Below are positions 7,871 through 39,384 of a DNA stretch of 64,000 nt, piece by piece. The first letter of the stretch is position 1. The number at the start of each line of letters is the position of its first letter. Made by a program: the position numbers and the translations under genes. This DNA is from Marsupella aquatica (taxonomy: Eukaryota; Plantae; Marchantiophyta). The DNA lies in assembly GCA_973895155.1 (NCBI GenBank), contig OZ316892.1, forward strand, positions 21,515,619-21,579,618, written 5' to 3'. Under the pieces are notes generated by a model that saw only the letters and a list, made by a program, of their open reading frames with translations, was not told where the DNA came from and searched no databases.

Positions 7871-8249
7871 GAACTTTTGCCCTGCAAACACCCAAAACCC
7901 CCTAGAAATGTACCCCCAAAAACCTTTCACCCTAAACCCTCAAAACTCCAAATACTTTCATAACTCATCCTATTCACCACAAGTATTTGTTACACTAAAC
8001 TCCACTCAGGGCGTGCCACGTGGACCAATCTCATCATGATGTGTGTCATGCCATATTACTGGCCCCCTTCAAGCAAATTATTTTGGCCGGCATTTTGGAT
8101 GCCTTGGAATAGTTATAAAGAGATTGTCATATAAAATATGGTCTTGTTGGTTATAAGTCGATTATAAAAATTAATCTGGAATTGATTTAAATGTACCCTT
8201 CGGCCGTTCGCACGTCCGGTCCATTATTAATAACGTTGGGGGCCCAGGG

Positions 8250-10780: not shown

Positions 10781-13280
10781 ACCGTTGGATGTAGTTACCT
10801 CGAGATGATCTCGAGGTAAAGTGACTACAAAAACAAACCAAAAAACCCAAGTGTAGAAGTTTATCCCACAAAACTATGTGATAGAGAAAATAAGAAACTC
10901 TTCTACCTCGAGACGATCTCGAGGTAGAAGAGGGACCAAAAACACCAATATGTAAAAATTCAGAAGTATTTAGCTCGAGATGATCTCGAGGTAGAATATG
11001 AAATCTCACTGAATAGCAAATTCAGATTCTATACCTCCGACTCTCTACAAACTCAATTAGAAGAAGGACAACCGAATGCACCATTAGCTAGAAGGCAAAA
11101 GTTAATAATTTTGAGGATCAAACTTATGACTCGAGATGATCTCGAGCCAAAAAGGACATTGTATTTGACAAAGATACTATTATGAATAATAAGCCACCCA
11201 AAATAAGAACATATAAATGGCTCTAGATGATCTAGAGGAATGATTTGGTGCAATTAAGAAAGTAGGCTCCCAGTTTACTTCCAAACACTGAGAAATAGCT
11301 TCTAAAAGGCCATCAAATAGAGGGAAAAGGCTTCCAAATGGATTTTGACCGACATTAGTATAAGTTGAAAAGGTTTGGTTTTCTAAGAGATAGGAGCTCA
11401 ATTGTTCTAGACCTCCTTCAGAGCTTAAAATGATAATTTCTTGACATATCCTAAACACAAACGTAGAGTCCACAACCCTTAAAAAGAACAATAGAAAGAG
11501 ATTAGAGCAGAAATCTAGAGCCAGAGAGAGGGAGAGGGAGAGGGAGAGAGCAGAGAGAGGCAGAGGGTGAAACGAGCGAGCAGTGAAACAAAATGAGAAG
11601 AATGACCCGCTGGAGAGCAAAGAGAAGCAATATATAAAACCCTGACTGACAAAAAGGCCAATAAGACGGCTTGGTTGAACTTGTGTCACGACTAAACTCG
11701 TGGTAGGGCTGAAGTACGGATAACAATAATGACAACACGTGTGACCGTAATAATGACTGTACGCTCAAACTAGTTTCATGGCAACCTGCATGAGCCCGTG
11801 GCACGCTTGGCACGGCCCTCAAGGCCGACCGCCAAGGGGCTTATAGTGGCTTCTGGGGGTTTGAACTCCCCATTTGCACATTCGCCTCCTTGCCTCCTCG
11901 CCTCCCTCGCCTCCTCTTGCCTCTAGATTTTTTTGCGCTCTTGCCTTGAGATCCTTGTAGTAGCCTCAAGATTAAAGAGGGTCGAGATTAGTTTTTTTCC
12001 TCGAGATTTTATAGGGTCAAGATTTTGTGTTTAGGCTCAAGCTTCGATAGGGTCGAGATTTTCTGTTTAGGCTCGAGATTTGTTTTTAAGTTCTCAGCCC
12101 GTAGTACGTTCCTCTCTTTACCAGCCATGTCTACTGTTGTAGATTTCTCCAAGGAGGACTTTGCTGAGTACAACCTTGCAACCGTTGGGGAAGAGCTTCA
12201 GACCCATCTAGACTCAGCGCATCAGATCCATCGCACCATTAAACGTAATTCATCATCTTTGTTCATTGTTCAGGTTTAACTCAAGATCATCTCGAGCTTC
12301 AATTGGTCCACTTGTTTCTGGATTCTTTGGATACAGTTGAGGCTCGAGATCATCTCAAGCCTATTGATGTTTTCTGCATTACTTTGCTTCAAAAGTTGTG
12401 ATCTATCAATTGATTTTGCATTTGATGTAAGTGGCATGAGGCTCGCGATCGTCTTGAGCCAATATGCATTTCCTGCATGTTACCTTGTCATATTTCTTCA
12501 AGTTGGAAACTCTTATCCTTCAAAATTGAACATCATATCTAAAATATCTAAAATTTCCTTCCTCTAGGGACTTTTGTACCCTCCAACTCATTCTGATCAT
12601 TGACATCCGAACGGGTTTGTGGGTATCAAAAGTCAATGGAGAAAGTGGATTTTAATCATTGATTGAATATGATGTTCATTGTTGAATATGATATTTGGAT
12701 CACTCGTTTGAGATGTTAGGCTCGAGATCGTCTTGAGCCAAATATATTCATCACCATCTTCCATTATGTTCATTCGTATCCCTTGGCCAATTTCTTCCAG
12801 TTGGAAGGACTCCATGTCGTCTACTTCAATTACTAATATCCTATTCAATGTGATCCAAGCTTGCCTTTTGGACCACTTTCTTAGTCCTCCAACTCGTTTG
12901 TGAAGATGACAAACCACTGAGTTAGAGGGTTTTGAATGTGGTCGAATAGGTGACATTGGATCATTCTTGAAAATGTTGTTCGTTAAATTTGACTGGTTTA
13001 TGATATACAATGGAATAAAACCTCAACTGATATATATGAGGATCGAGTTCATATATCATCTCGAGCCCTTGTCTTTTTCTTTTAAATAGATGGTGGCTCG
13101 AGATCATCTCGAGCCTATTGTGGTTCCTAACTATTGTGTTATCTTTTTAGATTTATTGGGGTTGAAATCTCTTTTTAAATTCCCCGGATGAAATGTGGCA
13201 TTGGAACATGTCAGACTATAGTGCATAAAACCGTCAACTCAACTGTCCTAAAAATGAAGGAAGATCGAGATCGTCTCAAG
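9757..13280. repeat. Cluster of 17-bp spaced palindromes CTCGAGA-N3-TCTCGAG
   Basis: Full or near-full copies at 9757, 10799, 10907, 10974, 11130, 11221, 12280, 12343, 12442, 12721, 13097 and 13264, plus half-sites at 11980-12080. Confidence 0.9.
11522..11570. repeat. GA-rich microsatellite in the divergent promoter region of element B
   Basis: gagagagggagagggagagggagagagcagagagagg. Confidence 0.8.
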
Positions 13281-14299
13281 CCACCTATTTGTTTCATGGT
13301 TTGTGGTACATGTTTATGACAATTGCTACATTTTGGCTGTAACAGGTGCGAAATTGGGATCGCCTAATTTGGTAGTCGAAGATGAACATGCAATTGAGGT
13401 TTCCTGCCCTGGACAAGGTCAATTTGGATTCTGTTGGGCCATTGAGCTTGCTGAACTGAAGACATGGAAGGAACTATTATTTGTGTGAAGACGAGGTCTC
13501 CATCAGTCGATCCTCTAGTGTGCAGCCTACTAGGGCCTGTTGTTTCTATTGTGACGAGTAACGGTAAGGACATGGTTTTGACGGTGGAGAACCACAAGAC
13601 AGGGAAGTGGGCTCTAATTAGACTTCACGCCAAAAACTACTCTTGCGATCTTAACATTGAACGTGCAGCCAGGAAACAATTGAGCGTGATATCAATGGGG
13701 TTCTTCCCCGAGGGTTTTACTACAAGTAATTTGCTAGAAGATACTCCTATATCTGGAGCCGACATAATTTTTGGATTCCTTTATTGTCGAAAGTATGGGT
13801 TTGATCGTGATGATGCATTCACAACTCCTTTCACGTGGAAGGTTTTGAGACTAATGTCGGAATCCAAATTGGGGGAGTTTGAATCCATATCCCCTGATTT
13901 TGTGTTTGGAGCCGGAGAATTTGACGAGGATGCTTGTAAAAAGTGGGTGTTGTCTCATTGGAGACAAACAAGAAAATTGAAATCTGTAGCTACGGGAGAC
14001 AAGACATCCGGTTTGGACAAAAAGGAAGCAAAGGTGTCTCAAAAGAGGAAGAGGGTTGAGAAACTCGAAAGCAAAGCGAAGAAGGCTCCAGCTCCAAAAA
14101 AGTCCGTGCCGCCCAAGGTAGATCTCATTCCGGCATCTTCCTCGGGTGTGATTGCACATACCGATGATGATGGCACTCCAGGAGATGCTTCAAGAGAAAA
14201 AAGCGTTAAAGAAGGAGCCAAAGTTCTTAAGGAGATTGAGGAGTATTACACATTTGGCATGAATGAAACTTTTGACATTCCTGTCACTAGTATAGATTC
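12128..14299 (+). pseudogene. 5' half of the element B ParB-MTase cargo gene (N-terminal region, Lys-rich linker, start of ParB-like domain)
   Basis: Putative first exon at 12128 (MSTVVDFSKEDF...IKR/gt), acceptor near 13345, ORF 13464-14306 ending EEYYTFGMNETFDIPVTSIDS. It joins in frame to 26058 across a duplicated ATTC. The upstream exon structure is tentative. Confidence 0.6.
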
Positions 14300-15430
14300 G
14301 CTATAGCAAGATGAAAAAGAGATAAATGACTATTTACTCCTTAATAACTCGATTTCGTTCCCGTTAGGAGTGGATAAGATCGAAAAGACTAAATTGACAC
14401 AATTTGAGAAGTTTACACCAACATTCTTAGGTTGGAGAGATTTCTAATGATCTCCTTAACATAAGTGTTTAACCACAAACTCAAGTGAGTAATCCTTAGG
14501 ATTCACAGTGCAATAATAAAGACTAGAATTAACAAAGATTGAAACTAGAGAGAGTAGGTAGGAGGTTTCAAAGCGCAAGGAAATTGAATTCCGACCATCA
14601 CCACTCTTTCAATAAGGATTATGGCCTAATTTAAGATTCGGAAATCAACATTGTATATGCTTTTTGATTTCTCATAGAAACTCTTCTCCATCTCTTGAAT
14701 TTAGAAGACAACAATGTAAATCAACCCGGGACACTTTTCTGGTCTTACTTAAGACGGTACTAGGATACTCGAATTGGTTTACTTCTCCTACTATCCTTAA
14801 GATTGCTTATTTGAGTTTCACATAAATTCCAATTTCTCTTTGGTGAATCTTCTATATGAATTGGTCACAGACCTTGCTGATCTTCCAATATCATCATAGG
14901 CACACGCTAGTATTCATTGAATATTGCACAATAACTCAAAGGGTTGCTAATCTTGAAACTTCTCTTTACTTAACCATGGTAAAAAGAAGGGAAGATAAGA
15001 CATAGATTTCTCCAAAATCAAAATGGGGAAATCAAATGCATCTCTCTCTCCCGGGGTTGACTTTGGGTTCTCCTCCTTTTGTACTAAAAGTGGAGATTAT
15101 GAAAATACATGCCTCTTCAAAACCCAAGTCTAAAGAAATATGTAAATAAAAGTGAACTATCCTAGTCAAAAATGGAGTAGAGTCTCCAATGGATACACCA
15201 ACAAAATACTGGAGTCTACTTACTCATATACTAGTCTATATAGTTATTTCTAAGTCTAAACTAATGTGGCTCTAACTCTCTAAATATAACTCTATTCTGG
15301 TCCTAGCTTTTGGGAAGGAACCTCCTCAGGGTTAGCCATGGCAAGGGGTTCTGGTCGAAGGACTCCCTGCTGGCCAGTGGTAAAAGGGATGGACGGGTCA
15401 ATATCCATGTTCTCCTGATGGGCACTTGGG

Positions 15431-15952
15431 TCATGAGAATAAGTGTACGTAAGAATGGGAGTGGAAGTGTGTACTGGGAGTGGGGAAACCAGGAGGGTTG
15501 AGGGGTGATGAGGGGCCAGTGGAATAGACTCCTTCATGAGGACTAGGAGAGAAAGATCTGGTAGTAAAGGCAGGAATCTCAGTATCAGCTAATAGCTCCT
15601 CTGTAGTCAAGTCACTCATCTCCCTTAAGGCTTCACAGGTCTTTGAGAGACCCGTAAGTGCATCATCCACCCTGGCACTCACATCTACCACTAAATGGTT
15701 AATCTTGGAGAAAAGGATGGGTGTGGTGTTTTTGGCCAAATACTCATCATAAATTTGGGTCTTAAGAAGATCCAGAGAAGCTATCTTAGTCAAAGGTTCA
15801 ATCAGATCCAAAGATTGAGTGATACTGAGTTGGAGAGTATGAACAAGAAGCCTTAAGGGATGAGTCCAAAGCCTTATTTCTCTTTTCAAAATCTTCATGA
15901 TATTAAAAAGTGTATACCAAAAAACCACCAAAAAATGGTATATATTTTCCAA
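15431..15952 (-). other. ORF of unknown function in the AT-rich left arm of the insertion
   Basis: 173 aa, helical-looking, no recognisable motif; possibly retroelement-derived. Confidence 0.25.
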
Positions 15953-16162
15953 ACTAGACTCAAGAGAATTTTACCACCAAAATCTAAGCATATCTTATAT
16001 GATATTCTCACAATTGTATAAACCTTGAAATATGCACTTTATAAAAGTAATCAAAATCAAACTCATCGATCAGAGTTTAAGTCAAACTCAAAGTTTTACA
16101 AAATATAACCCAACTTAAGCCCAAGTGGTTTCAAATGCTACGAGTCCCTCTATTTATCTAGT

Positions 16163-19100
16163 CTAATCCAAAGGGACCGCTTCCCCTTCGTCGGTTCCGG
16201 AAGTCCCTGTCGTCAATTCTGGAACAATTGTGGCATCGTCAACCACACTATCCTCTCCGGCCTGAGGAATGTCTTCCTCACTCTCCTCATCCATCTCCCC
16301 CTGTCCGTCTTCCTCTTCAATGTTATCTGCAAGGTTAAGAATCCTCCCTTTCAACACACTGCTCTGTCGCTCGTCAATCTCAATGGCAACGCAATGTCTC
16401 CCCATGGCCAAGGAGGAGGTTGTCCCAGTCCCTGATCCTGAACAAATATCCAAAACCCAGTCTCCAACCTGACTAAAATGACTCACTTCCCAATCTAACA
16501 ATGCACGTGGTTTCTGATAAACATTCACTGCCTTGTTATCCCCGTTGTGTTTCAGCTTCTTAGTCACAGCTGCGCATACAACCACATTGTTCCTTGATTC
16601 ATTTGTGTCAAAATTGAAGTGCTCCAATGACCGTTTACCATCCTGGCTGTGAAAGCCAATTGTAAAGCACTCAAAGTTGCTGTTCAATCTTGGTCCACCA
16701 GCATTCTTCACATTATCCTTAACCCTGAAAAGTCACAAAAAGTCAAGGAGTTATTTAAACTGAGAAACATGGTTCATGAAATCATGAATAACTAATAGTT
16801 GTTTTTTTCAAAAACAAATATTTCTTACCACACACAATTCTGGAACCCTCCATTACACTCCGCTTTCAAAACGGTCTTGATGGCCTCATATTGGTCAAGG
16901 CTGTGGTGAATGATAATACGCCACAACTTTGCAGTAGTAGCCACCTTGAACGATTGGACCATTTTTGTGATCTCCTCAGTTCCCCATCCAATAGTGTCTT
17001 CATGAAGACATCCAGGCAATGCAAACCCGTAGGGAATATCCACTAAAGCTAATGTGTAAGCCCGACCCGGAACCACCTCATGTAATCGCTGAGCATCATG
17101 AGTAAAAATATCATAGTGCACATCACCAAACTCTGGATGCTCAAACGAATTTGGATGAAGTTCCCCCTCTTGGGTTTGCCGACTAGAAGTCTTCATGGAT
17201 AGCCAATTTTGGGCTTGCACAATATGCGCATTGAATTTGTCCGGGAATGACTTGAGATCTTTGCCTTCCTCATCTCCCTTCTTTTTCCGGGAGGTGGTAT
17301 CTTTCTACAAAAAGGAACTGTAGAATTAGAAACAAGGATTCCAAATATTAAATGAATTCAAACAATCATTCGAAGAAAGGTGACAGAATCTTACCCATGT
17401 CTGGAAAACAGGTACAAAATTCTTAAGCACATTGTCTGTGCAATGCTCAGGGTACTTGGTTTTACAACCTGACCAACTCTCCTCGTGTAGACACGTGAGG
17501 AAGGCCTTCTGCACCTGCATCTGAAATTTGTGTCGAGTAAATTCGTGACCCATTTCCTGTAAAGAGAGTTCTTTAGTAAGAACTCTCTGTAACACTGGGC
17601 AAATCATATCAGGATCTTTCAAGGCCTGCATGTGTCTCCACTCTGTTAATTTCATGTCCTCATAAGGCAATTTGGCATCTCCAGACTTAGAGACTTTCTT
17701 CTTGCCTTTGTCTCCTTTTTGACCTTTGATCTCACACATCTCCCACTTGTCACAAATCCGCCTCACAAATGACCACACAGGATCTTGTCGGAATGCCAAC
17801 TGAAATAGGTTATCATTGGCATTAAGAACCTCAGCATCCTTTCGTACACCCCAATCCTTGAGATTGATTTCAGTAGCACACTCTTTCTTGAAATCCTGGT
17901 TGGACGACAATCCATTCTCAACAAATCTCATGTGAATATAATTTACTCTCTGGATTGTCGTCATCTGTTGTCGAAATTCAGAATCAATATTGTGACTCCA
18001 CGCAAGGTTTCTTGCCTCTTGCACACTCAATCCCGCAAATATCCAAGATTGCACTCTCCGAAATGCCTTGTTGTTAGGGAACTGAAGAGCAAGGTCTGCT
18101 TTGGCACAGGCTGAATGGTTGCCCCCAATCACATAATAATGGTAATCAGCTTTCCTTGAAAAATCAAAGTCTTGCCTAGTAGCACACTCCTTCGGATCCA
18201 CCAAGAGGACAAACGGAGCTGCAAGTGGACTGGCACCTACAGTCTTCATCCGCAAGGTCAATTGGGTCAAGAAATATGGTTGGATGTGTCGGACCTGGTA
18301 AATGGGCAAGCCCACAGCCTTCTCTCTCACTGGAGGGTAAAGTTGACCAATGTTAACGGTCACGGTCTCCTCTTGAACACCACATCTTCCCAGAATCTCC
18401 TCCTGGTACAATACCCGTGCATCCATTGACATTGATTGAGCCTTTTGCTCCAAATGCGTTGGAATTTTCTCCAAAGTCTTCTTTTTGGACTTTGTAGCAC
18501 TGGGCTCGGTAGGCTCAGGAGTCATAGCAGGTCGCTTCTTTGAAGAAATGCGAGTTCCAGTCGTACCTTGTGCCGACCCACCAGTCAAAGCCGTTCCCTG
18601 GGATGATCTGCCAACTTGAGATCCCCCTCCAGATGCTGCTGCTTCCCGGGAGGTTGTAGGCGCTACCACGGTCAAAATATCATCGGGTAAAATGCTAGGC
18701 CTCGATCCAGAAGGAACACCGGAAGCCCCAGATTTGGGTGGACGACTTACTCCCTTCTCTGCCGACCTTTTCCGGAGAATCTCTCTTGATTTTCGGATTG
18801 CACTCTTTAAAGTGCTAGCGTGAAATTCAAACACAAAACCGGAAATCTTTCCCGCGACGTCGTGGTAACGTTCCTCACTCAAAAGAGACTTGACAGTCTC
18901 AATGATGCTATCGATGTCCTCATCGAGATAGCAGGTGGCAGCCGTTCCAGAAAACCTCTCCACATCCACGACAATCAAAGTTGATGTTTCCTTCGTTGTG
19001 ATCAACATGTTCACAACTTCGTCGCCCCGTTGAAATACATCGATGCGGCCGTAATTTACCCACCCTAATGCCCCCGATGGAAGCCCCTCAAATACACACA

Positions 19101-19224
19101 GCATTAGGAAGGGCTTCTTCCATGTTTCCGTCCCTAAGGAAATCGTCCAGGATGAGTTGTGGAAGTCCGTCAAAGGATGGCGCGAAAAGATGTCATCCAC
19201 CAGCTCTTCCTGCGACATTGTCAT
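16163..19224 (-). CDS. ParB/Srx-like domain plus beta-class N6A/N4C DNA methyltransferase fusion; 3 exons, 955 aa, apparently intact
   Basis: Exons 19224-17395, 17304-16829 and 16724-16163 with GT-AG introns of 90 and 104 bp splice in frame (2868 nt). ParB-like motif YYVIGGNHSACA. MTase motifs in beta order: LALVDIPYG (IV), CVWVK...NFE, VNVYQKPRALL, GDWVLDICSGSGT (I), GRHCVAIEID. Confidence 0.85.
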
Positions 19225-19388
19225 GTTTTTGCCTGATCTTCAAACCTGAGAACATACCACAAAATCAGTCCACTTCAACCCCAACCTGCGAGACAAAGTG
19301 CCACAGAACCAAGGAATGTGCCAACAAATGGCTACTAAAACCGTGTCCTTACGGATCTAACAACGCTCTCGGCCACCCCAGGACTCCT

Positions 19389-19496
19389 ATCATGAATTCA
19401 TGAAGGGAGTCTCCCTCTCGCTCCGACCTTCATGAATTCATGAAGGGAGTCTCCCTCTCGCTCCGACCTTCATGAATTCATGAAGGGAGTCTCCTC
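19389..19496. repeat. 40-bp tandem repeat (about 2.6 copies) carrying palindrome TTCATGAATTCATGAA in the divergent promoter of unit A
   Basis: catgaattcatgaagggagtctccctctcgctccgacctt at 19391, 19431 and partially at 19471. Confidence 0.9.
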
Positions 19497-20043
19497 TCTC
19501 TTTGCTTGTACACCTCGGTGATGCAGAAGGGTATTTAAAATAGGGTTCGGAGGGGGGTGACGTGAAGAAATCACCCAGGGCCTAAATTACTACCTAAAAC
19601 AGGGTCGAAATGAAGTGCGACCGCGACAACTCGCGACACGTCGCCGATGAGTGCTGAAAATGGCACGAAATTGGATAGCGAGATTGTTTTTCACTCTTTT
19701 ACAAAGGAAATCCAAATGACATTGAGTGAAAATGAATGGGCTGCCCCGTGTTCCTTGGTTATACATACTAATCACGGATCAGGCGCGACTTAGTAAAATT
19801 AACCCAGAATCATGATAAATCAATGTTTTTGGGCCAATTATTCATGAATATTTCGGGGTATTAACGGGAAAAAGCTTGCAAATTTCATGAATATTTGATA
19901 TTTTTGAAGTTAAAAAGTCCCAACAATCCGTGAAAAACTATAAATAGGCTCGTTTATTCATGACTCTTGGTCATTATTTTGAGAACATTTGTTAGATTTT
20001 ACTGATTTTCTGAGTTTCCTGTCAATTTGCACTAGTTTTTCTA

Positions 20044-23000
20044 ATGGCGGCGTGTTACGAATCAGATGATTATTCAGATGGAGTTTCTGATGATGTTTCA
20101 TTGCCGGATGGCCCCTGCACAGTGGTTGGCCCAGATATCCCTGGAATAACTACTGTTTTAGATATGCCACCCCCCACCCCTATGAGCAAGTTAAAACGTA
20201 GTCCTTTACGACTTGCAATTAGTGGGAAGAAATCATTGGTCGGTGGTAAAGAGAGGTTAGGGAGCTCCTCTGACTCCTTGGAGAGTATTGGTCCCCCTGG
20301 ACGTCAAGTTGTATCTCCTTTGTCACCAACAAAGGACAAATTGGGGAGTAATCTGGAAGGTTCAATGCCTATTTGGATGTCTGGGAAACGGTCTCATGAA
20401 TTCATGAAGACTGGATTTGGAAAGACGAAGAAGGCACTAAGTGGGGAAAATGACAGAGATTTTTGCAGTCTGCAAAGTGTTCAGCGGCTGAAGCAAATGC
20501 CAAAAAGTAAAACCTTTGGTAAGCCAACGTCGGAAACATTTCACAGGGGGATGAGGGAAGAAACTAGACGACCAGTGTTATTGAAAAGTATTCCAGAAAA
20601 GAATTCTAATGTGCGTTCCTCAGTTTTACCTAGGAGTCATGGTGTTGGGGCAGGGAGCGGATCAAGTCACGGAAACTCAAACAGGGAAACCAACCTGGTG
20701 GAGAGGGACCCTAGGAAAATATTGAAAGGGTCCCTACACGGTAATGGAGGGATTTCTGAAATACGCCCAGGTATTCCAAGGGTGCATAGAGTGAAGGAAG
20801 AGCCTCCATCTCCGAAGGCTGCAGGTCTGGAATCTAGGCATGTTCAGAAGCAAATGTTGGTGACCATTTCATCATCGAATGAAAGCGAGTCTTCGGAGAG
20901 TGGGGAGGATGATGATGTTCCGGTGGCATCTAGTCGTTACAAACGTACGAGCAACGCCACTTTGTGTGAAACAAAGTTGAAAGAGGAGGATATCAAGAAA
21001 ACAAATAGTAAGTACTGTTGTCAGAGTCATTGTCTCCTAAGTCTATCTCCAAAAGAAATTCGTGAGGCCCGTTCTAAATTTTTGAGGCAGAAATCTCAGG
21101 ATCGATCTTTATCTTTGCAGTGGCTTATAAAGCGAGACGGAAATGAAGGAGGGAGGCAGACTATATCTTACACGTTTGGTCAAAAGAGTATTTGTCGGAA
21201 AGCTTTCAAGCTTATATTTTGCGTTGGCAATCATAGATTAAATAGAATTTTGAAATTAGACAACCAAGACTTAGGATATTCTAAACCAGTTGGACGCCCT
21301 CCATCTGTTAAAAGATTAGTCTTGGTCAGTTGGCTTAGGTCGTTTTTTGAGACACGCGTGGAAACATTGCCAAATAAAGAAGTTTCACATTTACCGGATA
21401 ATTATTCAAAGCTGGAGGTATGGAAGATCTACGACTCCAACTATGCCAAGATTGATGAATCTTCAAAAATATCCTATTGACAATTCTTGAAAGTTTGGGT
21501 TCAAGAATTTGGTCATGTGAAGATTCCTCCAGTCAATCGATTCAGTGCTTGCGCGGATTGCGAGGAGTTCAAATCAATTCGGGACAAAGCTGTCTCGGAG
21601 ACCGAAAAGAGTAAGTTGCTTACAAGTTTGACAAGTTTTTGTTTCAAGAATATGGCTTAACACATGATTTCTAATTCTTTTTGAAGAAACTAACAAGTTG
21701 TTTTTCCAGGGCGAGGGGAAATTATGTTACAAAAACATAGAGACCAACAATCCAAAGAACGTGAGAAACTCGCGAAGCATCGTAAGAAATGTTTTTCAAA
21801 TTCTGATAAATATTTGGGAGTTGTCATTGATGGGATGGATCAGAAGAAGACAAGGTTGCCTCATTGGCCGCGGCCCCCAAAATCGGTGGACGAAACATGT
21901 TTGATCCAAATGCACGTTGTCGGATGCCTGGTTTTCAATGGTGCACTATTTTCAAGAGTGTTTCTTAATTATCCTGTATTGCATAATGATGGAAACTTGA
22001 CAGTCACAATCCTGCAAAGGGTGTTTCACGAATGGGAAGAAAAGCCTGGTGGCTTGCCGCCTGTTCTCTATCTTCAACTTGATAATACCAGTAGAGAAAA
22101 TAAAAATAATTTACTCTTTGCCTATCTTCATATGTTGATTCGAAGAAAGGTTTTTCGGAAAATCAAACTAGGATTCTTGTTGGTTGGACACACACACGAC
22201 CAAATAGATCAAATGTTCAGTCGATTTTCTAAACGACTAGCAAGGTTTAAGGCATTCACATACGAAAGCCTATGTGATATTATTTGTGAATCATATCAAC
22301 CCCAACCAAATATCGCTCTTTTAAAGGAAACATATGATTTCCGTCAATATGCCTTCTCAGATCCACCTTTAGTCATTGAAAGGATTCGAAATGTTACCTT
22401 CCACCACCAGTACAAATTTGCATTTGACAAGTTGGAAAATCAAGTTCCAACCCAATGGGGGAAGAAGTTTTCCACGGACTCAACTTGGAAACCTGACGGA
22501 GGCGTGAAATTTTTGAGGGAAGAGGAGCCAGAAAAGGTGATGGGTTGTGCTCCCGGATTACCCCTTTTCAAAAAGGGGGATAAGAACGTTACAAGGACTC
22601 AACCAAATATGTCTAGTTCTTCAAGAATGACTTTGAAGGAGATGGATGATTCGTTAAATGAGATTCAAAAGGGAATACTTGCAGTTGAAACTTTATTCTC
22701 AGAAGAGGAAGTGAACTGGTGGAGAATGTTTTTTGAAGAGCAACGGGAATTGAATAAATCTTTGCTCCTTGATCAAAGACCATTGATTTTCCCTTTTCAA
22801 TGGCCACGCTCCCAAAGGGAGATTGCTGTTGCTGCTGAAGTTCCCAGAGTCCTTGTCAATGAAGAGGAAATTGAAGAGAGAGTATACGGACCTACCAGAG
22901 ATATATACGTGGGTCCTTATCGGAATCAAGGAAAGATAGATGCAGAGAAGGAGAATATGGAAGGAGACTTTTCGGATCTTGAAGTCAACACTTATATTTC

Positions 23001-23442
23001 TGTTGCTGGAGAAGAATCGGAAACATTTTGGGTGGCCAAGGTGGAAAGAATTGACCAGCGCGACGAGTTCAACATTCCAAAAATGATTTATGTTTTATGG
23101 CATGCTCCAAAAACCGGGTCAGATCCTTGGAAAGCCAAGTACTTACCAGAAGTCTTAAACTACGAAAAGAAGAAAAGTGGTCGTGGGAAAGGAACTTTGA
23201 AACCAATATGGTTTCACCAAGAGCTTGATTTATCTTCAACGACTGTTTTTGCTTACAACTTCATGTTGACAAAATCTGATACATTGTACAAAAAGACAGT
23301 AGATCGAATCAAAATCCGATTGACTGAATTTTTGGCAGAAGAGAAAGAGCAAGAACAAGAGAATGGATCAACTAGAACCCCGCTAGGAGATAAATCTAGG
23401 GATATTTCGTTTCAAGAATTGAGAACTTCTGGATCTGAGTAA
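20044..23442 (+). pseudogene. Transposase A (GHTH-type, DUF7869-like), 2 exons, about 1099 codons with one premature TGA; C-terminal SH3/Tudor/BAH-like region
   Basis: ORF 20044-21480 reads through TGA into FSACADCEEF; intron 21611-21709 joins it in frame to ORF 21724-23442. Motifs CCQSHC, ICRKAF, VIDGMDQKKT, YLQLDNTSRENKN, FLLVGHTHDQIDQMFS are colinear with transposase B. Confidence 0.8.
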
Positions 23443-23976
23443 TGAAAAGTAGTTATTGTTTATGACATTACCATTGAAAAACATGGATAACTTGAAAATT
23501 TACAAATTTTCAAAATGCCTTTACCACTTATTCATGAATTCATGGTTAAAGTTTCTTGAGAAATTTGTAGTTTAATATTATCTTAGTGGGTTGTGTTTCA
23601 ATTCAATTAGATGGTGTCATTTCTATTCTCCTTGTCTTCTTTTCACAATAATGTGTATCAGGTTAAGTTGTAGTAATTTATTTTCTGGTTTTTAAATGAC
23701 AATGGCTTTTGGAGGTGATTTAGTTGTTGTTTCAAAAGACACCTCGTGTAATTGTGAGACCATTGTAGATAATAGTGTTGTATTTGAGATCATTTATTGG
23801 TGGAATGTAACTTCAGATGAATTTGGTCATTTTTAGGTGTCAAAACATAGCTAGTTTATGTCATATTTTGTTCGCTCCATATTTTTGCTCTAAAATAGGT
23901 GCTAATTTTTGCACTTTTTTAGACTTTTTCGTTGTTTTTCTGATTTTTTGGCTAGAGTTCCTAAAGTATGGGCTTG

Positions 23977-25275
23977 TTACTCATCATTTAAGGCTTCTTG
24001 TTTATGCTCAAGCTCATTCTTCTTCTTACTCCTTTCCAACTGCTGTTTGAGTTTAGATACCTTCTTCTTGAGGAACTCATTCTCCTTCTCCAACTTCCTC
24101 TTATCTGTGGCATCACTCATGGTGGAGATCTTTTCAAGAATCTGCCCTGGTTTCACTCCTAACGTCTGAGAAATGTCAGTGATGGCCTTCTCCATCACAG
24201 TGGTCTTCCTCTTCACCTTCTGGAATGTGTCTGAGATGATCTGGAAATCAGCTAGGGTGTCTAGGGAGGCATGGCCGGGTGCATCCGGAAATTCAGCTGG
24301 GTCGACGAAGTCCGGGTTGAGGTTCCGGGCAGTAGACCGGGTCTTTCAAGGATTTGTCTCTGCTGGTTCCTCATCCTCACTGTCATCAGAGGTGGCCTAG
24401 GTGATATCTGGATCTGCCTCTCCATACTTTATGAAGTTGAACTTGGCCAATAGTAATTTCTTCTCCTCTCTGAACAAGACTCCTTCAAAGCTATATAGAT
24501 GTACCAGGTAGCAGGAGAGGGGAGTAGGACTCTTATTGGACAGGTTCTGTACCAACTTCCTTATCAAATCAAAGATAAGCTTAGCCCAGTTGACTTTTCT
24601 TTCTCCCTTGTAAGCAGCAACAATGGTAGAGCCAACTCCAACAGTAACTCTTCGTGGCTTCTCAGGATATAGCAGGGGTAGCAGGAAGCTGAAGACTCGT
24701 TTCAAATCAGGATCCAAACACTTAGAAACATTGAACCCGTCCTTACTATTGATGGCTCCTTTGAAGTAAGGGAGGATTAGATTGACAGCTCTCCCCACTG
24801 GACCTTCTCCTTCATCTTCCAATACAAAAGCTCCTGCAACCATCATCTGAGTCCATCGCTCAGGTCGGCCTCTGGAGGTATCCTTAAACTCAGCCGGACA
24901 CTCCTTGGATCGGATCTCTCTGATCATATCTTCGCTCTGATAACTCCAGGGTAGCTCCATCAGAGACTCACAGCCCATCCTGAGCAAAGACTCCCTCAAT
25001 TTGACCTTCTCAGCTTCATTGTCCGGAATAGCTGGCCTCAGAATTTTCATGGCAATGGGGACCTCCTTTCTCTTTGATCGTCTCACAGGGGCTTTAACCG
25101 GAGTGGGTGCAGGTGATGTTGAGGTTGAATGCCCCTTAGAAACGCGAGAAGTGGATATTCTGGCTGGATCCGCCCCTTGCTCCATAGGATTTCTGGAAGT
25201 AGCAAATTGATTTTTGATAAATGGTTTGCCTTCTCTACGGCAAGCTCCACAATGATGCGGCTTCAGAATGTTCAA
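23977..25275 (-). pseudogene. Plant transposon-associated protein (Transposase_32/PMD-like) with coiled-coil tail; two internal stops
   Basis: ORFs 24397-25275 and 23977-24216 share a frame across TAG and TGA. LMELPW...KVNWAKLIF...LSCYLVHLY parallels LASLP*...RKWASYF...FASHIEIIL in the ORF at 55974-58622. Confidence 0.55.
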
Positions 25276-26053
25276 TCTCTTCGGTGTCGACCACTGGTAG
25301 AAATGTCCGGGTCGACCTGGCCGCAGCGTTTCTGATCAACTGACGAGCTTTTCTGGAACAGTGTATCAAGATTCCGTCAACCAAAATACAGGTGCATCGA
25401 ACTTGGGGAAAAGCTAGACTCAATCGGGCCTGCAATGGTGATGTCCGGATCGACCTGGCCTCCCTTCTCACAACCGATGTATCCACAATCAGGATCTTAA
25501 ACTTTTTGCCTTCACTTCCAGCGGTGGAGTAGGCATTCCCCTCACAACGAATCAGTCAGTACCCTCATATCTAGGCTCTCATCATGCAATGCAAGATTGG
25601 TCCTATAATCCGGACCCAAGATCCTCTACCAAAAGGGTAGAGCCTCCTCACTCTACTACTTAAACAGCCTAATGCGCTTGGGAGCTCAAAACCTATTAAG
25701 TTCGGCTTTGAGAGGTGTGAGAGGCCGGATCGACTCTCCTTCCTTATATCCGGATTCTGCTGTGGTCGTGCCTGTGTTTGACTTATGGTTTTAAAAACTT
25801 TGGCAATGGACAGCTATTGTTCATAAGAGTCATGGTATAAGCTTTTATATCTCATCATGGCTTATAGTAAAAAGTTCCGGGTCGATCATCCTTCTCTAAT
25901 ATCAATCCGGGTTGACCTCAGATGGGCTTGAAAGTCTCATACCACTTCAAAGTAGTCTTCAGGTCCCTCTTCAGCCTCATTTGAGATCTTAAACATAAAA
26001 ATTCTAAAATTTATGATTAGTTAACCCTTCTTTCATAAACATCCTTATCTCAC

Positions 26054-28841
26054 ATTCACCGTCTGCAGTATTGGTATATAGGATGTTCAATAAAGATCAT
26101 GCCATGGAGGTCGCAAAATCCATGGTTAGAAACCCTGGAATGGTACTAGCTGTGGCGGATTTAATTCTGTATTCAAGAGAGAGTTTGCAGTTGCTCCATT
26201 ATGAGAATACTCCTGAGGATCGAAAGGAGTTTGAGTGGGGTGTTAAGAATAAGAAGGTGCAGTTCCTTGCAATTAGTGGACAACACTCGGTAAAGGCAGC
26301 TGTTTGGATCATAGGTTGGGCTAAGAGCGATGCAAAGTTGAAGGAGGTCGCGAAGAGTCTACAATATCGAAAGTCACAAATTCTTTCGGACAAAACTCCA
26401 AGAACAATACTTGCTCAACACTCACAAAGGGCAAATGCTGTTAATAAGACCATGGAGTATGAGTCCTATTTTCTTGATACTATGGTCCATGCCCGTTGAC
26501 AGTTTGACGAGTGTGGCCGTCCTGAGAGACCCGTGATTGGGTCCAATAGACTAACAAATTATCAAAAGTTCGAACTCAAATCCATTTCTAGCTCGAGATT
26601 GTCTCAAGCCTCGAGGTCAAGTTTCTGTATTTGATTTATCTTCGTGTATTCTCCCATAAATTTCAACATAGTTCCTTAATTCTACCTCAAGATCGTCTCA
26701 AGCCTCAGATTTTCTTTGTACTGTTTGGATCAGGATTGTATGGCCTTGGCCAAAATAACGACTGGAAAATCCGATCTGAAGAAATATTTTTTGGTTGCTG
26801 TTTTTGGAAGAGAACCTCTTCCAAACTTGGAGACAAATGTGCATCGATTGGGTCAAGGGACTTCTTCCGGATGGTCTAGGGGAGTTAGGTTCAAGAATAA
26901 ATGGGAAATCCCGGACAACAAAAATGATTACGCCGGCATTGTTTAGATGCTTTGAAGGAGACCTGAGTAGTGACAACATTCTGAAAGTTTTTACTGCCGT
27001 TCAACAATAGAAGGTTTTATTGAAGAAAGACCCAGCCAACAAATTTGATGTTCAATCAATGAGTGATATGGCTCATACTTTTAAAGTCATGACGAAGCTG
27101 AGGGCAAAAATTGTGGAGTACTTCATTTTGAAGTATCCGGATCGGTTTGCCAATTCACTCACTTGGTTTGAGCTAACTCAATTTTTGCCTGCATTTATGG
27201 ATCGTGGTGAGTTGCCTAAACTTAGACAACTTGTTGGAGAGGTTTGGATTTCCAACCTCCTAAAAAGAAATAGGCCAAAAGACCCATTTCCGCAAAGTCT
27301 CATTGTTAGGCTTGAGCAGATATATTGCAAGGTATTTGGCGGGATGCCTTCAATGGAGGATACTCCTTATTGCACATTTTTTAGCGATAATTTGATGAGG
27401 ACAATGAAGCCTGAGATTGTTGACTCGGTGCAAAGGACGTGCCCACTTTCCATTGTCGATTTTGGTCATCTTCGATAACGGCAGTGGACAGATGCCAATT
27501 TTTTTGTCTTGTTGGAGTATTGTTTGTAGATGGCGAACTCGACGGAGCTCTTGGTAATCTTTTTTGTCCGTCAAGGCCCATTGATAGGCCAGATTCAGAG
27601 TGCCTTTGAAAAGATTTTTCGTGAGAAGAAAGTCCACACGAAGCTGGAGTACGGGAGCTACTACCGTGATCAGCTGCCCAAGGAGGAGGGAGATTTTCTC
27701 ATTGGAGCCCGAGACTCAATCATCTTTGGGGGAATTTATTGTCAAGAGGAACCAGACTGGTCCCAAATTTTCTTTGATGACTTTTATGCATTTTGGAACT
27801 ACACTGAGAAATGGGACAGACTTCACAGTCTTGCCTTTGAAGGCCCCTACTGGGAACAACAAAGACCAATCAAAGGGGAAAGATAAGCTCGATGAATCCA
27901 CTGTTGATGTCAAAGTTTTGGAGAAGATGGCCCCATCTTATGAGATGGTCGGTCGGTGGGGTGGCTTTGTAAATCCGAGAGCAAAGCCTTTGCGAATGAC
28001 AAAGCATCTTGTTGATTATTTCTCGTGCCCAGGTCAGACAGTGTTGGATTTCTTCTTTGGAGGACAGACATTGAAAGCTTGTGTCATTCTTGGTCGGGAT
28101 TGTTTTGTGTATTTGGACACAGCTCAAGAGATGGAATTCACAGAAGCCTTTGCTCAGCTCCTTCATGACAACAAGCAGGTTTTATATGTGCCACCCAAAG
28201 AGCCGTTAGCATCTGAGGAAATTACTGCCGGTCCCCTCGTTCTTATAGAAGAGACGGCCTTAGACATAGCTCCGGTGGAAGCCAGTGTTTATGAGGAAGT
28301 ATTTGAAGAGAATTTAGAGCATTGCAAAACGGAGGGCCCAAAAATCACAAGCTACGTGGAAGAGGAGGGTGAAATAATGCCTGAATTTGGAAATGATGCT
28401 CGAGATGATCTTGATGTTCCAGGTGTTTCTTCATCGGGTGGCCTTGGGGATGCACAACGTGAACAACAGTCTTCAACCTTGGATGTTGGCTGGGAGTCCA
28501 CCTTGTAGGATGCAGTTAGCCAACCAATTCCAAGCCCTCCTCAACTGGATGAGATTTTCTCTACTAAGAAAGCTAGTGGCTGCCATACTCCCCCTCAAGA
28601 CGAGGCAGGTGCATCATCCCCTCCCTTGGACCAAATGTTTTGCGCTTCAGAGAATAAGCTTGTTTTCACAGATTCTTCTACTGGAAGCCCCGTAATTCTC
28701 CCTTTTGTTAGGAAACCGGGGACTGAAATCGGTAGAACTGGTTACAAATCACTCAAAGCAAGTGCTACTCATTATGTTTGGACTGATGGACCGTCAAAAG
28801 GTCAACAAGTCTCTATAGAGCAATCTGAGAAGATTATTTGA
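26054..28841 (+). pseudogene. 3' half of the element B cargo gene: ParB-like domain and degenerate amino-methyltransferase
   Basis: FLAISGQHSVKAA corresponds to YYVIGGNHSACA of gene A. FVNPRAKPLRMTKHLVDYFSCPGQTVLDFFFGG...LGRDC corresponds to VNVYQKPRALL...VLDICSGSG...MGRHC. Several stops and frameshifts. Confidence 0.75.
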
Positions 28842-29262
28842 TCTAGAAAGTATAGGAAGGATAAGTTCAAATTAGTGTCAGTTTGGTCTGAGCCAGCTCT
28901 TGTTGAGACCCTTCTTGGAGGGATAAATTTGGACATCCAAAACCAACTAGGAGATAACCTTCTAGATGAATTTGGGTCTTTCAGCATGTGAGGTTGAAAC
29001 CCAAGTAAGTTTGAACAGTCCTGAAATTCAGCCGTCTAAATTATTATGTCTATCTTCACAAAAATAGGCGGGCCCTTACCAGTTGTGGAGTGCGTCGATA
29101 ATAATCTCCGAAGATGTCCTGAGATTTCTTCAACTACTGACCTTCAACCAACAATAGGTATGATGTTGACTGTTGTTCATTCACTTGTGATGCTTGAGAT
29201 CGTCTCGAGCATTCCTTTGTTTTATCTCCCACAATTCTAACATTGGTGTTCCTTCTTTGCAG

Positions 29263-30023
29263 GACCCTTGCCTCCACTTCACGGTCCGATCAGACGGAAG
29301 CTATTGATTCTTGACCTCAACAAAATGTACTGGGATTCTGTCAAAACGCCAAGTTCCGGACCGCGTCGTAGTGCAACAAGTGTCAAGGGTGTCCACTGGG
29401 GGAGACGTGGAGGGTTTAACTTTATGTATGTTGAGCGACCCCATCTTCACGAGTTCTTAATCGCAGCTTTTTTGTTATTTGATGTTGCCATTTGGACTTG
29501 TGCAAGGAAACCCAGGACAGATGAAATGATTCATTTGATCTTCAGTCAAGAAGAGCGAGAGCAATTCAAGTTTATTCCCACACAAGAAGATACATTCGAT
29601 ACTGGAATCCAGAGGCCTGACATTACCGATGTGAAGGAAAATATTCATTTGAAGGATTTGAGGGTTGTTTGGAAACATTATGGTGGATTATATGACGAAA
29701 CTCATACACTCTTTCTTGATGACACTCCAATGAAGGCGTTTGCAAATCCAGAGAATTGTGGGTTGTTTCCTTCCTCATTTTTGCATCACTCCACGGATGA
29801 TACATTCTTTCCAGAAATACTGTGGCCTCTGCTCAGAAAATTGTATCATGCCTTCAATCTTCAGCACTACCTTTTTATCAATCATCCAAAGTGGTCTATG
29901 ATAAATGTTTTATCGGACAGAGATCAATAGGCTTCCATTTATGCGTTGTTGACGGAGCGGTGGGATAGTATGGTATGGGTTCATTCGGTTATCCATACAG
30001 TCTTGGATGTCACAGTGGACGAA
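29263..30023 (+). pseudogene. FCP1/NIF-type HAD phosphatase domain exon, cut by an LTR insertion at 30024
   Basis: RKLLILDLN...ERPHLHEFL...FDVAIWT...KDLRVVW...YDETHTLFLDDTPMKAFANPENC. Acceptor at 29262; the frame continues past TAG 29928 to 30023. Confidence 0.85.
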
Positions 30024-34149: not shown

Positions 34150-34898
34150 GTCCATGCTTAGTGTGGAGAATGTGTAGTGAACTTTTGTTGTAAAGGTGAT
34201 GCAATAAAAGGAGACTTGCAAATCTTCATTATGACCATTAAGTGTGAGTGCATTTGAAGTATATGAGAGCATTCAAGAGAAGAGTCCATGCTATGATGTA
34301 ATCTTGGTCTAAGCTTGAAGGGGATGTGCTAGTACAAAACCAAGGCCAAGGAGGCAAGGTTAAGGTAGATCACTACTTTGAGACTTAGAGAGGATTATAG
34401 CTTGAGGGTGGAAAGTACTTTGCTTGGTGTGTGGTGTTAACAAAAAGTAAGTATGTACAAGAGGAAGAGTCCTTAGATAGAGGAGCCTTCTCTAGAGCTC
34501 AAAGAGGATGTGTGGACCCAAACCAAAGCCAGGGGGGCAAGGTTGAGGGATAACACTACTTTGAGGGTCTTGAGGAGACTTAAGCTTGAAGAGGAAAGTA
34601 CTTTGGGTTCTTGGGTGTTTGTGTGAGAATCTACTCTAAGGTGACAGCTTGGAGCGGAGACCCCCCTTGCTGATCCTTGGAGTAGAGGAAAGGGGAAGGG
34701 TGTGAGTACAAAAGTAGTCAAGGGGACTACCTCTCTAGAAGTGGAGAGTTGAAACTACTTATGTATGGAGTGATTAGACATTGTAGGCACATTTCAGAAG
34801 TTTTGTCAATCCTTTGTGACCCTGGTATAATATGGAGCAGGTATTAGGTAGTCTTTTGGGGAGAAAAGCCGCTTAAGCTCCTTGACAAGTGTTTGACA
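34150..34898 (-). mobile_element. Truncated second copy of the same LTR, inverted, abutting a copia element
   Basis: Reverse complement of 30024-30765 with scattered differences; ends ...gtttgaCA at 34898. Confidence 0.85.
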
Positions 34899-39340: not shown

Positions 39341-39384
39341 ATCAGTGAGAAGGAAGTGAGCTTGCCGGTGCATTGGTGTCTATG

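Follow-up and report, generated by a model that had tools for sequence, protein, structure and literature searches.

Why does a land-plant transposon carry the same short palindrome in an intron of one gene, between its two promoters, at the start of its transposase coding region and near its 3′ end, and which protein might read it? The question is posed by unit A, a cut-and-paste DNA transposon of 8,161 bp with terminal inverted repeats (TIRs), which interrupts the reading frame of another repeat in a 64,000-nucleotide stretch of liverwort DNA (hereafter, the window). The ends of the element (Table 1) agree with an empty site present in public runs X1 and X2, and the right end is further supported by the different flanking sequences found behind 24002/24006 in other copies; the repeat hosting unit A yielded no definite target-site duplication. 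The family to which unit A belongs has near-identical copies, and Calypogeia and Riccia contain homologs. None of 7 runs listed as containing the sequence is an RNA run, which carries no information about expression. Neither protein alignment, when scanned against viral and prokaryotic genome collections, brought up a relative, and one metagenome scan yielded 2 loci out of 124 pattern matches.

Unit A contains two divergent genes on opposite strands, one for a DUF7869 transposase and one for a ParB-methylase, a head-to-head layout that recurs in a relative, L002. The transposase, whose aspartate motifs read DGMDQ, LDNTSRENKN and GHTHDQID, carries one premature stop (TGA at 21478-21480, codon 479); its DNxxxxNKN and GHT motifs may resemble those of Sola1. 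The spliced ParB-methylase is intact and stop-free over 955 aa.

Table 1. Positions of features of unit A within the window.
Feature	Position	Strand	Remarks
Target-site duplication, left copy	15838..15841	+	4 bp, TATG
Unit A	15842..24002	.	empty-site joint 15837->24003, 4 shared letters, runs X1 and X2
Left TIR	15842..15873	+	32 bp, 27/32 matched, dyad-free
ParB-methylase exon 3	16163..16724	-	N6_N4_Mtase domain, SAM-binding motif I at aa 865
ParB-methylase intron 2	16725..16828	-	GT..AG
Dyad 1	16774..16787	.	TCATGA-AA-TCATGA, intron 2 of methylase gene
ParB-methylase exon 2	16829..17304	-	catalytic motif IV variant DIPY at aa 699
ParB-methylase exon 1	17395..19224	-	610 codons
Tandem repeat	19390..19500	.	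40-bp unit, 2.8 copies, 166-276 bp upstream of methylase start
Dyad 2	19390..19403	.	
Dyad 3	19430..19443	.	centre of exact 16-mer with 3 outer pairs
Dyad 4	19470..19483	.	centre of exact 16-mer with 3 outer pairs
Four single TCATGA half-sites	19810..19963	.	19810, 19842, 19885, 19958, around TATA-like box
TATA-like box	19939-19946		upstream of transposase
Transposase exon 1	20044..21610	+	low-complexity N terminus, Cys-rich region
Dyad 5	20394..20407	.	in transposase codons for H-E-F-M (aa 118-121)
Transposase exon 2	21710..23442	+	DUF7869, three conserved aspartate motifs, PF25273 E 4e-51
Dyad 6	23532..23545	.	one mismatch; 90 bp past transposase stop, 457 bp from right end
Right TIR	23971..24002	-	
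Target-site duplication, right copy	24003..24006	+	4 bp, TATG

The initial annotation had reported the motif as a 16-mer at six places, and all six hold: copies at 16773, 19389 and 20393 (one mismatch each), 19429 and 19469 (exact) and 23531 (two mismatches) amount to six dyads where 0.03 are expected by chance, a number reached in 0 of 100 shuffles. The copy at 23531, placed by that annotation in the 3′ flank, does follow the transposase stop by 90 bp but lies inside the element and not in host DNA. Both exact 16-mers fall within the 40-bp tandem repeat, whereas five of the six copies match the 14-bp core, TCATGA-NN-TCATGA, at every base. The excess does not depend on the repeat: after it is collapsed to one unit, 3 exact dyads and 1 with a single mismatch are left (0.01 exact expected), together with one degenerate, chance-level site at 17652. 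The remaining 55.8 kb of the window hold no exact or one-mismatch dyad. Within unit A, the dyads stay 932 and 457 bp from the element ends, and there are none in the TIRs or subterminal arrays. A further joint, 20411->23943, was considered as a deletion ending at a dyad and rejected; because its short side comprises only 23 letters (the dyad plus flanks) and the sequence before 23943 differs from that of unit A in the reads, it more likely represents a related family that shares the right end and has a dyad-like copy.

Single half-sites are also concentrated upstream of the transposase. Those noted previously at 19841, 19884 and 19957 exist, an additional TCATGA at 19810 having been missed, and the resulting density of 4 per 544 bp compares with 0.18 predicted by the frequency elsewhere in the window (P 3e-5, for an interval chosen post hoc). 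The other 3 single TCATGA sites in unit A are at background level (P 0.44), and L002 too has single sites upstream of its transposase.

Whether the motif matters to the element can be judged from its persistence, and our comparison of dyads covers the DNA of three elements: unit A, L001 and L002, whose branching order the tree does not resolve. Synonymous sites among them are saturated (four-fold sites are 25-36% identical), and L002, with a ParB core 69% identical to that of unit A, matches it at 25% of four-fold sites. A dyad occupies intron 2 in 3/3 elements (expected 5e-5 each), where dyad 1 is the sole conserved internal block. Upstream of the methylase, dyads are spaced by 40 and 40 bp in unit A, 42 bp in L001 and 40 bp in L002, the L002 pair having unrelated flanks; L002 also keeps dyads in the 5′ coding region of its transposase, as two copies 63 bp apart. 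Spacings of 40-42 and 63 bp approximate four and six helical turns, and may be inherited rather than independent.

The sole gapped 5-bp dyad (spacers 0-10) common to all three elements is TCATG-N4-CATGA, and this is the conserved unit, shared by a clade. It replaces the earlier description of the motif as two TCATGA palindromes, since L001 has no TCATGA in 3,633 bp. The five outer pairs are invariant across the three elements and one pair varies, its natural variants being A-T and C-G: in L001 the varying inner base of the half-site has changed on both sides in 3/3 copies, 2.9 kb apart, each within a 32-bp perfect palindrome whose outer arms differ. From this comparison we conclude that the motif is under selection and is probably a recognition site for a protein. 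The symmetric change is what a code linking a homodimer to its site would predict, and it fits co-evolution of protein and site within the three elements compared.

The coding region of the transposase appears to bend to the motif as well. The 16-mer at 20393 spans transposase codons 117-122, and, among 146 proteins (87,034 aa), just two transposase N termini match the peptides compatible with a dyad in that frame, each with two matches (H-D-I-M at about aa 111-112 and 132-133). The H-x-x-M peptide is absent from one full-length transposase N terminus, P0141.

The initial annotation had regarded the motif as private to unit A and had set it against a different one in unit B, taken as a sister subfamily. 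The two motifs are indeed mutually exclusive within the window, with 0 B dyads in A and 0 A dyads in B, and unit B has its unrelated dyad at comparable places. The motif is not private to unit A, however, because L002 carries it in the form TCATGA-WW-TCATGA, and unit B belongs instead to a distant lineage: its transposase is ~30% identical, and its ParB-like piece matches the ParB part of A with a profile probability of 0.7% (E 0.014 with a wider profile). What stands of the co-evolved specificity code that was proposed is the concerted change in L001, in a motif that is clade-wide.

What might bind such a site? The accessory protein of unit A is predicted to be a ParB fold fused to a beta-class DNA amino-methyltransferase. 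Exon 1 encodes a PH-like N-terminal domain, a disordered linker, the ParB fold (~aa 275-420, with GNHS as Box II) and a helical domain (~aa 420-570). Searching PDB, Pfam and PHROGs by sequence missed the ParB part, which was detected by structure models only, its best Foldseek matches being Noc, Noc bound to its site, ParB-CDP and KorB, with E values of 5e-5 to 2e-4 to Noc and ParB, as expected of a ParB-like domain. VIA aligned the ParB part with PadC over 97 residues (Z 9.2, rmsd 3.0), and ParB/Noc aligned across aa 285-567. Taken alone, the helical domain ranks KorB first and second among 48,161 chains (Z 5.8, rmsd 3.8, 97 aligned; Z 5.3, rmsd 4.1, 109 aligned), and SopB, Spo0J and ParB are also among the chains listed; these matches are weak, their Z falling short of what is needed to tell a relative from a widespread helical arrangement, and a Foldseek search with this domain found nothing at E 0.001. 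The models weakly suggest a KorB-like domain in the place of the central helix-turn-helix DNA-binding domain of ParB-type clamps.

Modelled as a homodimer, the protein scored 0.61 against 0.00 for the best of 3 controls, and the runs showed contact agreement of at least 64% and pLDDT of at least 73. The mark for this score is reached by 21/30 solved pairs and 0/23 single chains from microbes, and by 17/29 and 0/30 from eukaryotes, but by just 1/7 pairs without an older solved relative; since ParB dimers are already solved, the pass may draw on those structures. The arginine of the Box II motif GxxR is absent: the motif is GNHS in 14/14 close relatives, and arginine occurs in 0/69 pattern matches among 167 family proteins, a search whose pattern fixes the preceding His, so that canonical GERR boxes could not match. 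In ParB-fold proteins, changing the Box II arginine to alanine abolishes nucleotide binding, according to the available part of one study (PMC12704722), and CTP-driven sliding by the ParB-methylase would be doubtful because this arginine is replaced.

In the methylase portion, catalytic motif IV (aa 699) precedes SAM-binding motif I (aa 865), the order of the beta class, and exon 3 matches N6_N4_Mtase (PF01555, E 1.6e-8), a domain detected in 7/30 family proteins scanned. The catalytic motif is DIPY in A, L001, L002 and another relative, P0015, with DFPY, DIPH and DAPY in more distant ones. It is neither DPPY (N6A) nor SPPY (N4C), and by its letters would resemble the former more than the latter. 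CcrM is the nearest solved sequence to that of a relative (E 0.006), and PHROG methylase profiles match the methylase of P0015, for which a tblastn search against phages gave no match at 1e-3. Fusions of ParB and N6_N4 domains are otherwise typical of phages.

We favor a model in which the dyads serve as parS- or operator-like sites and the ParB-methylase encoded by the element would bind them as a dimer, probably by way of its helical domain, much as ParB, Noc and KorB bind their palindromes. The sites are few and spread out, lying in the intron, between the two promoters, at the transposase start and at the 3′ end; from them the protein might regulate the two divergent promoters.

The principal alternative, which we consider unlikely, is that the Cys-rich N-terminal region of the transposase binds the dyads, which would then be internal enhancers or sites of autoregulation comparable to those of TnpA or AtMu1, with the targets of the ParB-methylase lying elsewhere. 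Single half-sites do cluster at the transposase promoter in both A and L002, one dyad lies where transposase coding begins, and the AtMu1 transposase binds and activates its cognate copies (10.64898/2026.08.24.746577), a precedent for transposases acting alone on their own elements that counts against our model. But the peaks of AtMu1 lie in TIRs and subterminal arrays (10.64898/2026.08.24.746577), which are dyad-free in unit A; the best conserved dyad is the copy in the methylase intron; and the element encodes a protein of the very fold family known to bind such dyads.

Invariant outer arms across species, and sites flanking both promoters, could also be expected if a dimeric host transcription factor drove the element, e.g., in germ cells or under stress. 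The lack of exact or one-mismatch copies elsewhere in the window, the concerted inner-base change in L001, and the unrelated dyad at comparable places in unit B make this quite improbable. A heat-shock element was rejected, the three-unit element being absent from A, L001 and L002.

That one pair has changed on both sides would equally suit hairpins in RNA or single-stranded DNA that control splicing or translation; the 32-bp palindromes of L001, with their differing arms, fold strongly (z -8.6), and the repeat of unit A folds well (z -4.9). Nevertheless, 5/6 pairs are invariant, the covariation score is matched by 171/500 shuffles, and in each of the three elements shuffled sequences fold as well as intron 2 does (z -0.2, 0.1, -0.3). 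The dyad is found in transcripts of opposite orientation as well as in DNA that is presumably not transcribed, and Rfam gives no match; we regard this explanation as very improbable. Tandem duplication and template switching could have left neutral copies behind, which would account for the 3/6 copies within one tandem repeat, but this is contradicted by dyad positions conserved against a saturated background and by the unrelated flanks of the L002 pair, and its chance is negligible.

Returning to binding by the ParB-methylase, a second step may be that the protein writes N6-methyladenine or N4-methylcytosine onto the element's own DNA as a self-mark against host silencing. We hold this only tentatively, and the reported absence of abundant 6mA from streptophytes (10.64898/2026.05.21.726589) counts against it. 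In the fullest version, land-plant transposons would run a site-and-clamp system borrowed from bacteria: the dimer would load at a few helically phased palindromes, spread without the usual CTP switch and keep its element active by covering it with a prokaryotic methyl mark, with each lineage changing both half-sites at all copies in concert, which would give a readable protein-DNA specificity code that reshapes even transposase coding sequence. As a whole, this scheme is speculative and on balance rather unlikely.

To our knowledge, binding and chemical marking of its own transposon by an accessory protein is known for VANDAL elements only, and we know of no site so far tied to a ParB-containing accessory protein of a transposon. 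Conservation here defines a candidate to the base, TCATG-N4-CATGA, and the intact gene, the natural variants of the dyad and the unrelated dyad of unit B make the proposal directly testable. If true, it would mean that land plants have a source of 6mA or 4mC besides their own enzymes and that transposons defend themselves in a second way; a methyl writer loaded at a site might also serve in epigenome editing.

Unit A resembles VANDAL elements of Arabidopsis and their VANC proteins (PMC5735166, as far as its available text describes them) in encoding an accessory protein of its own, in motifs particular to a lineage that lie upstream and within introns, and in amplification by tandem repeats. 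In contrast to the VANC motifs, which are asymmetric, dense, in the same orientation and of fast turnover, the dyad is symmetric, present in few copies, clade-wide and kept over saturating divergence; and in place of a demethylation trigger unit A has a predicted methyl writer, with no Pfam match to DUF1985 or DUF287 (the VANC domains) in the five unit A exons scanned. Like Sola2 (PMC3627910), unit A has a 4-bp target-site duplication and short imperfect TIRs, although its motifs, compared by eye, do not match the DFxENY, SDGxxxQYKN and HGKxxCD given in the first of two parts of a Sola2 alignment. Prokaryote-type beta-class amino-methyltransferases in eukaryotes include DN4MT1 of Marchantia and N4CMT of rotifers (10.1101/2021.02.12.428880, PMC8885841); these are, in the available parts of both reports, host genes with SPPY and without a ParB domain, not transposon cargo, whereas unit A has DIPY.

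With ParB/parS, Noc/NBS, KorB/OB and VirB/virS (PMC12704722, PMC10770331, in their available text), the protein of unit A shares a ParB fold with a helical domain after it and a predicted dimerization by way of the ParB domain. Dispersed palindromic sites conserved in cis are likewise present, their assignment to the ParB-methylase being inferred. VirB, an anti-silencer, both loads and slides (available part of PMC10770331). Unlike ParB, Noc, KorB and VirB, the unit A protein has no Box II arginine, is fused to a methylase and is eukaryotic, encoded by a gene with introns.

The closest counterparts are algal: published work already describes ParB-methylase cargo, in Sola1-1 of Ectocarpus, and ParB cargo accompanied by inverted repeats, in Bostrychia. 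In the portions available, both papers (PMC12477816; 10.1101/2025.02.11.637652) propose that ParB accessory proteins attach to the transposons encoding them and modify these chemically, and our literature search found no land-plant case with traced site evolution. The red-algal Plavaka (EnSpm) elements of Bostrychia, with PAG3/PAG2, have a ParB-like protein, inverted repeats proposed as its sites and, as in unit A, a PF01555 methylase on the same element (10.1101/2025.02.11.637652, available text). There, however, the ParB domain is joined to a 2OG oxygenase, another gene, with a SET domain, supplies the methylase, and the repeats form tandem arrays beside PAG3; in unit A, a single protein combines ParB and methylase, and the dyads stand singly at set positions, among them an intron and coding sequence of the transposase. 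Unit A shows three features of algal accessory genes of the ParB plus N4/N6 methyltransferase kind: a ParB-like domain, an N4/N6 methyltransferase in the same protein, and a position opposite the transposase in a TIR element. In Sola1-1_Ec32 of Ectocarpus (PMC12477816), a protein of 1104 aa likewise combines a ParB-like domain with an N4/N6 methyltransferase, is encoded on the strand opposite the transposase of a DNA transposon, and has been assigned the same proposed role of self-binding and self-marking. The two elements, one of 21.5 kb in a brown alga and the other of 8.2 kb in a liverwort, are likened by domains and layout; and while the binding site is not named in the available part of the Ectocarpus paper, unit A offers a candidate dyad.

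All six dyads that the initial annotation had placed in unit A, the two-gene terminal-inverted-repeat transposon of the window, were recovered in place (starts 16773, 19389, 19429, 19469, 20393 and 23531; at most two mismatches), against an expectation of 0.03. The full 16-mer is exact only at 19429 and 19469 (two of six copies), and the 14-bp core, TCATGA-NN-TCATGA, is exact in five of the six. Three copies lie within a 40-bp tandem repeat; with this repeat collapsed, three exact dyads are left versus 0.01 expected under an order-2 Markov model, and the remaining 55.8 kb of the window contain neither an exact nor a one-mismatch dyad. The motif of unit A is real and under selection, and overall the first reading was partly right. 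Single TCATGA sites fared unevenly: those at 19810, 19842, 19885 and 19958 exceed background (P = 3e-5, for an interval picked after inspection), but three others in unit A do not.

The motif had also been thought private to the subfamily of unit A, yet it is clade-wide, being present in both loci (L001 and L002) that a metagenome scan returned. Identity over the ParB core is 66% between A and L001, 69% between A and L002, and 80% between L001 and L002, and identity at four-fold sites (36%, 25% and 34% among the three) is near saturation. Exact TCATG-N4-CATGA occurs three times in the 3,633 bp of L001 and four times in the 4,766 bp of L002 (0.01 expected in each), with a further one-mismatch copy at 283 in L002, and it is the only 5-bp gapped dyad, at spacers of 0–10, common to the three elements. 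A dyad lies in intron 2 of the methylase gene in 3/3 (5e-5 expected per intron), where it forms the sole conserved internal block; two or three lie upstream of this gene, spaced 40/40 (A), 42 (L001) and 40 bp (L002); and the 5' coding region of the transposase holds one in A and two, 63 bp apart, in L002. A second block shared by L001 (~385–400) and L002 (~1540–1556), GGTTGTGTGTATACAC, follows the upstream dyad and has no clear counterpart in A; in L002 a degenerate dyad (~1504) sits just ahead of it. Both upstream dyads of L001 (307–380) sit within longer palindromes with nine extra perfect pairs and copy-specific outer arms.

With peptides as a proxy, dyad-compatible HDIM (aa 111 and 132) was found only in P0144 and P0146 among 146 proteins, i.e., in two of six transposase N-terminal matches, three of the six ending short of the region; P0146 is close to L002 and hence not independent evidence. 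The compatible peptide is absent from the full-length N terminus of a further transposase, P0141, and because this N terminus is without H-x-x-M, the site of its element may differ. For P0141, a methylase (P0002) and a transposase core (P0025), the longest contig is in each case 8,829 bases long and comes from a single source; the three are probably parts of one further two-gene element.

The centre of the dyad varies by element, being AATT in five of six copies of A, ATAT or ATTT in L002, and CTAG in all three of L001. The description of the motif as two 6-bp TCATGA palindromes thus applies to A but not elsewhere, since L001 has no TCATGA. In L001 the inner base has changed symmetrically at three sites 2.9 kb apart, which fits co-evolution with a homodimer. 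A protein–DNA specificity code would predict such a change, but three elements, whose branching order the tree does not fix, are insufficient to establish one.

Because an empty-site joint (15837 to 24003, four shared letters) occurs in contigs of two public sequencing runs from two studies (X1 and X2), unit A is delimited to 15842–24002 with a TATG duplication. Three contigs continue into other flanking sequence after 24002 or 24006, and therefore the element has moved. Window-like contigs show 1 difference in 1,004, 4 in 1,821 and 3 in 661, at depths of 484–574 in X1; for most diverged contigs it is 18–28. The depth of the near-identical contigs, depth not being copy number, suggests a young multi-copy family. 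The dyad at 23531 is unchanged in a 548-deep contig covering 23330–23990. TATG also follows two other insertions in X1 and is absent after one in a third run, X3, in which an empty-site variant is CATG; a target preference resembling the half-site core is possible, on four sites only. A related family in X1 contigs (at 23943–23998) shares ~55 bp of the right end of A; its transposase is ~84% identical to that of A (X2 record), and it seems to carry a dyad-like 23-mer.

Features of unit A and of other parts of the window
Feature	Coordinates	Strand	Details
Unit A terminal inverted repeats			32 bp, 27/32 matched
Unit A target-site duplication	15838–15841, 24003–24006		TATG
Unit A transposase gene	20044–21610, 21710–23442	+	DUF7869 (Pfam)
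Unit A accessory-protein gene		-	three exons, 955 aa, no stops
Unit B transposase	8227–10056	-	DUF7869
Unit B ParB-like piece	26017–26499	+	ESM Atlas lead DUF3723, 0.89
Unit B N6_N4 domain	27588–28508	+
Unit B NIF phosphatase frame	29241–29930	+
Long inverted repeat	30024–30766 / 34150–34898		98% complementary over ~740 bp, encloses 3.4 kb
Integrase- and reverse-transcriptase-like frames	34886–39545		direct repeats 36577–36736, 39385–39545
Skp1 domain frame	46995–47363

Named homologs of the unit A proteins occur in Calypogeia (the nearest for the accessory protein), Riccia, ferns, Chara and marine animals; the match to Calypogeia suggests a liverwort host. The transposase has a stop at codon 479 (translation to 23376; remainder of the frame open). 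In the accessory protein, Pfam places N6_N4_Mtase in exon 3, with motif IV (DIPY, aa 699) ahead of motif I (aa 865), i.e., the beta order; motif order and the DPPY/SPPY rule of amino-methyltransferases are given in the available text of PMC8885841. Exon 1 has no Pfam match, and its model (pLDDT 73) has Foldseek matches to Noc, Noc on its DNA site, ParB-CDP and KorB. By VIA, this model aligns to PadC (Z 9.2, rmsd 3.0, 97 aligned) and, over aa 285–567, to ParB and Noc with high rmsd. When the helical part was modelled alone (pLDDT 88), KorB ranked 1 and 2 of 48,161 chains, at Z of 5.8 and 5.3, a range reachable by chance among helical folds, and Foldseek returned nothing for this part at E 0.001. 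A two-copy model scored 0.61 versus 0.00 for the best of three controls, with the ParB domains as interface and runs sharing at least 64% of contacts at pLDDT of at least 73. In calibration the score passed 21/30 pairs and 0/23 single chains from microbes, 17/29 pairs and 0/30 single chains from eukaryotes, and 1/7 pairs without an older relative; because ParB dimers are solved, the pass may reflect memory of them.

Box II reads GNHS in 14/14 relatives, and its arginine, needed for nucleotide binding in ParB-fold proteins according to the accessible part of PMC12704722, is absent from all 69 matches to the pattern in a set of 167 proteins. The family comprises 469 clusters at 50% identity, and PF01555 was found in 7 of 30 long members scanned. 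In the ESM Atlas the ParB part (aa 255–611; 17392–18462) adjoins fungal DUF3723 clusters (0.96, 191/256 features); in the three best of these, 22%, 78% and 99% of the members carry the domain. One 1,825-aa relative, P0150, has two ParB-methylase units in tandem. The N-terminal domain (aa 20–138; 18811–19170) is well predicted and weakly SANTA/PH-like (Z 4.8 and below), and, going by its model, could read chromatin or a partner.

With fixed outer arms, a free centre, near-helical spacing and few copies, spread over unit A but absent from its termini, the short dyad looks, as far as sequence can tell, like the site of a dimeric DNA-binding protein. Unit A itself encodes a protein whose modelled fold belongs to a family known to bind such dyads. 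We predict, with somewhat better than even confidence, that the ParB-methylase of the element would bind them. That it would, from the dyads, methylate the element's own DNA is a more tentative prediction, held at somewhat below even odds, and CTP-driven sliding is more doubtful than that. The complete scheme, in which a dimer would load at the palindromes, spread without a CTP switch and methylate its own element, with concerted half-site changes constituting a code, seems unlikely as a whole. Binding by the transposase has a precedent (10.64898/2026.08.24.746577), and we regard it as improbable here; binding by a host factor is less probable still. Lower again stands action as a hairpin, against which intron folding is no better, and covariation no higher, than in shuffles. 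That the dyads are neutral is scarcely credible.

The motifs of A and B are mutually exclusive within the window, but unit B is only distantly related to A. It looks like a single larger element split by nested insertions (7900–14300 and 25900–30020), with eleven CTCGAGA-NNN-TCTCGAG-type dyads over both parts, many of them decayed at CpG. Many B dyads (10799–11146, 12280–13113) sit within longer palindromes whose outer arms differ by copy. The repeat hosting A (14400–15837, 24007–25900) has a minus-strand reading frame that crosses the empty site; it is deeply covered in both X1 and X2, is poor in CpG and matches nothing in Pfam. The integrase- and reverse-transcriptase-like frames are presumably Copia-like.

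As to class, we take Sola1 to be plausible for unit A, given the Ectocarpus case, in which the element Sola1-1_Ec32 encodes an accessory protein with ParB-like and N4/N6 methyltransferase parts (PMC12477816). Its ends fit Sola2 in the available text of PMC3627910, but the transposase motifs differ. Openly accessible papers, searched in full text, yielded no land-plant report of such elements, none of the dyad motif, and no use of the term DUF7869; nor do the accessible portions of PMC4738411 and a Marchantia preprint (10.1101/2021.02.12.428880) mention the element. Judging from excerpts of the respective sources, VANC is a functional analogue of the accessory protein (PMC5735166), VirB is an anti-silencing ParB clamp (PMC10770331), ParB and N6_N4 fusions are common among phages (PMC12704722), and the DAM enzymes of retrotransposons form a separate class (10.64898/2026.05.21.726589). 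In Bostrychia, according to the part available of 10.1101/2025.02.11.637652, inverted-repeat arrays adjoin the ParB-containing PAG3, and self-binding was proposed. Self-binding ParB cargo has thus already been proposed in print, and unit A is a variant of that kind, for which the site evidence is better than in the published proposals, as far as their available text extends.
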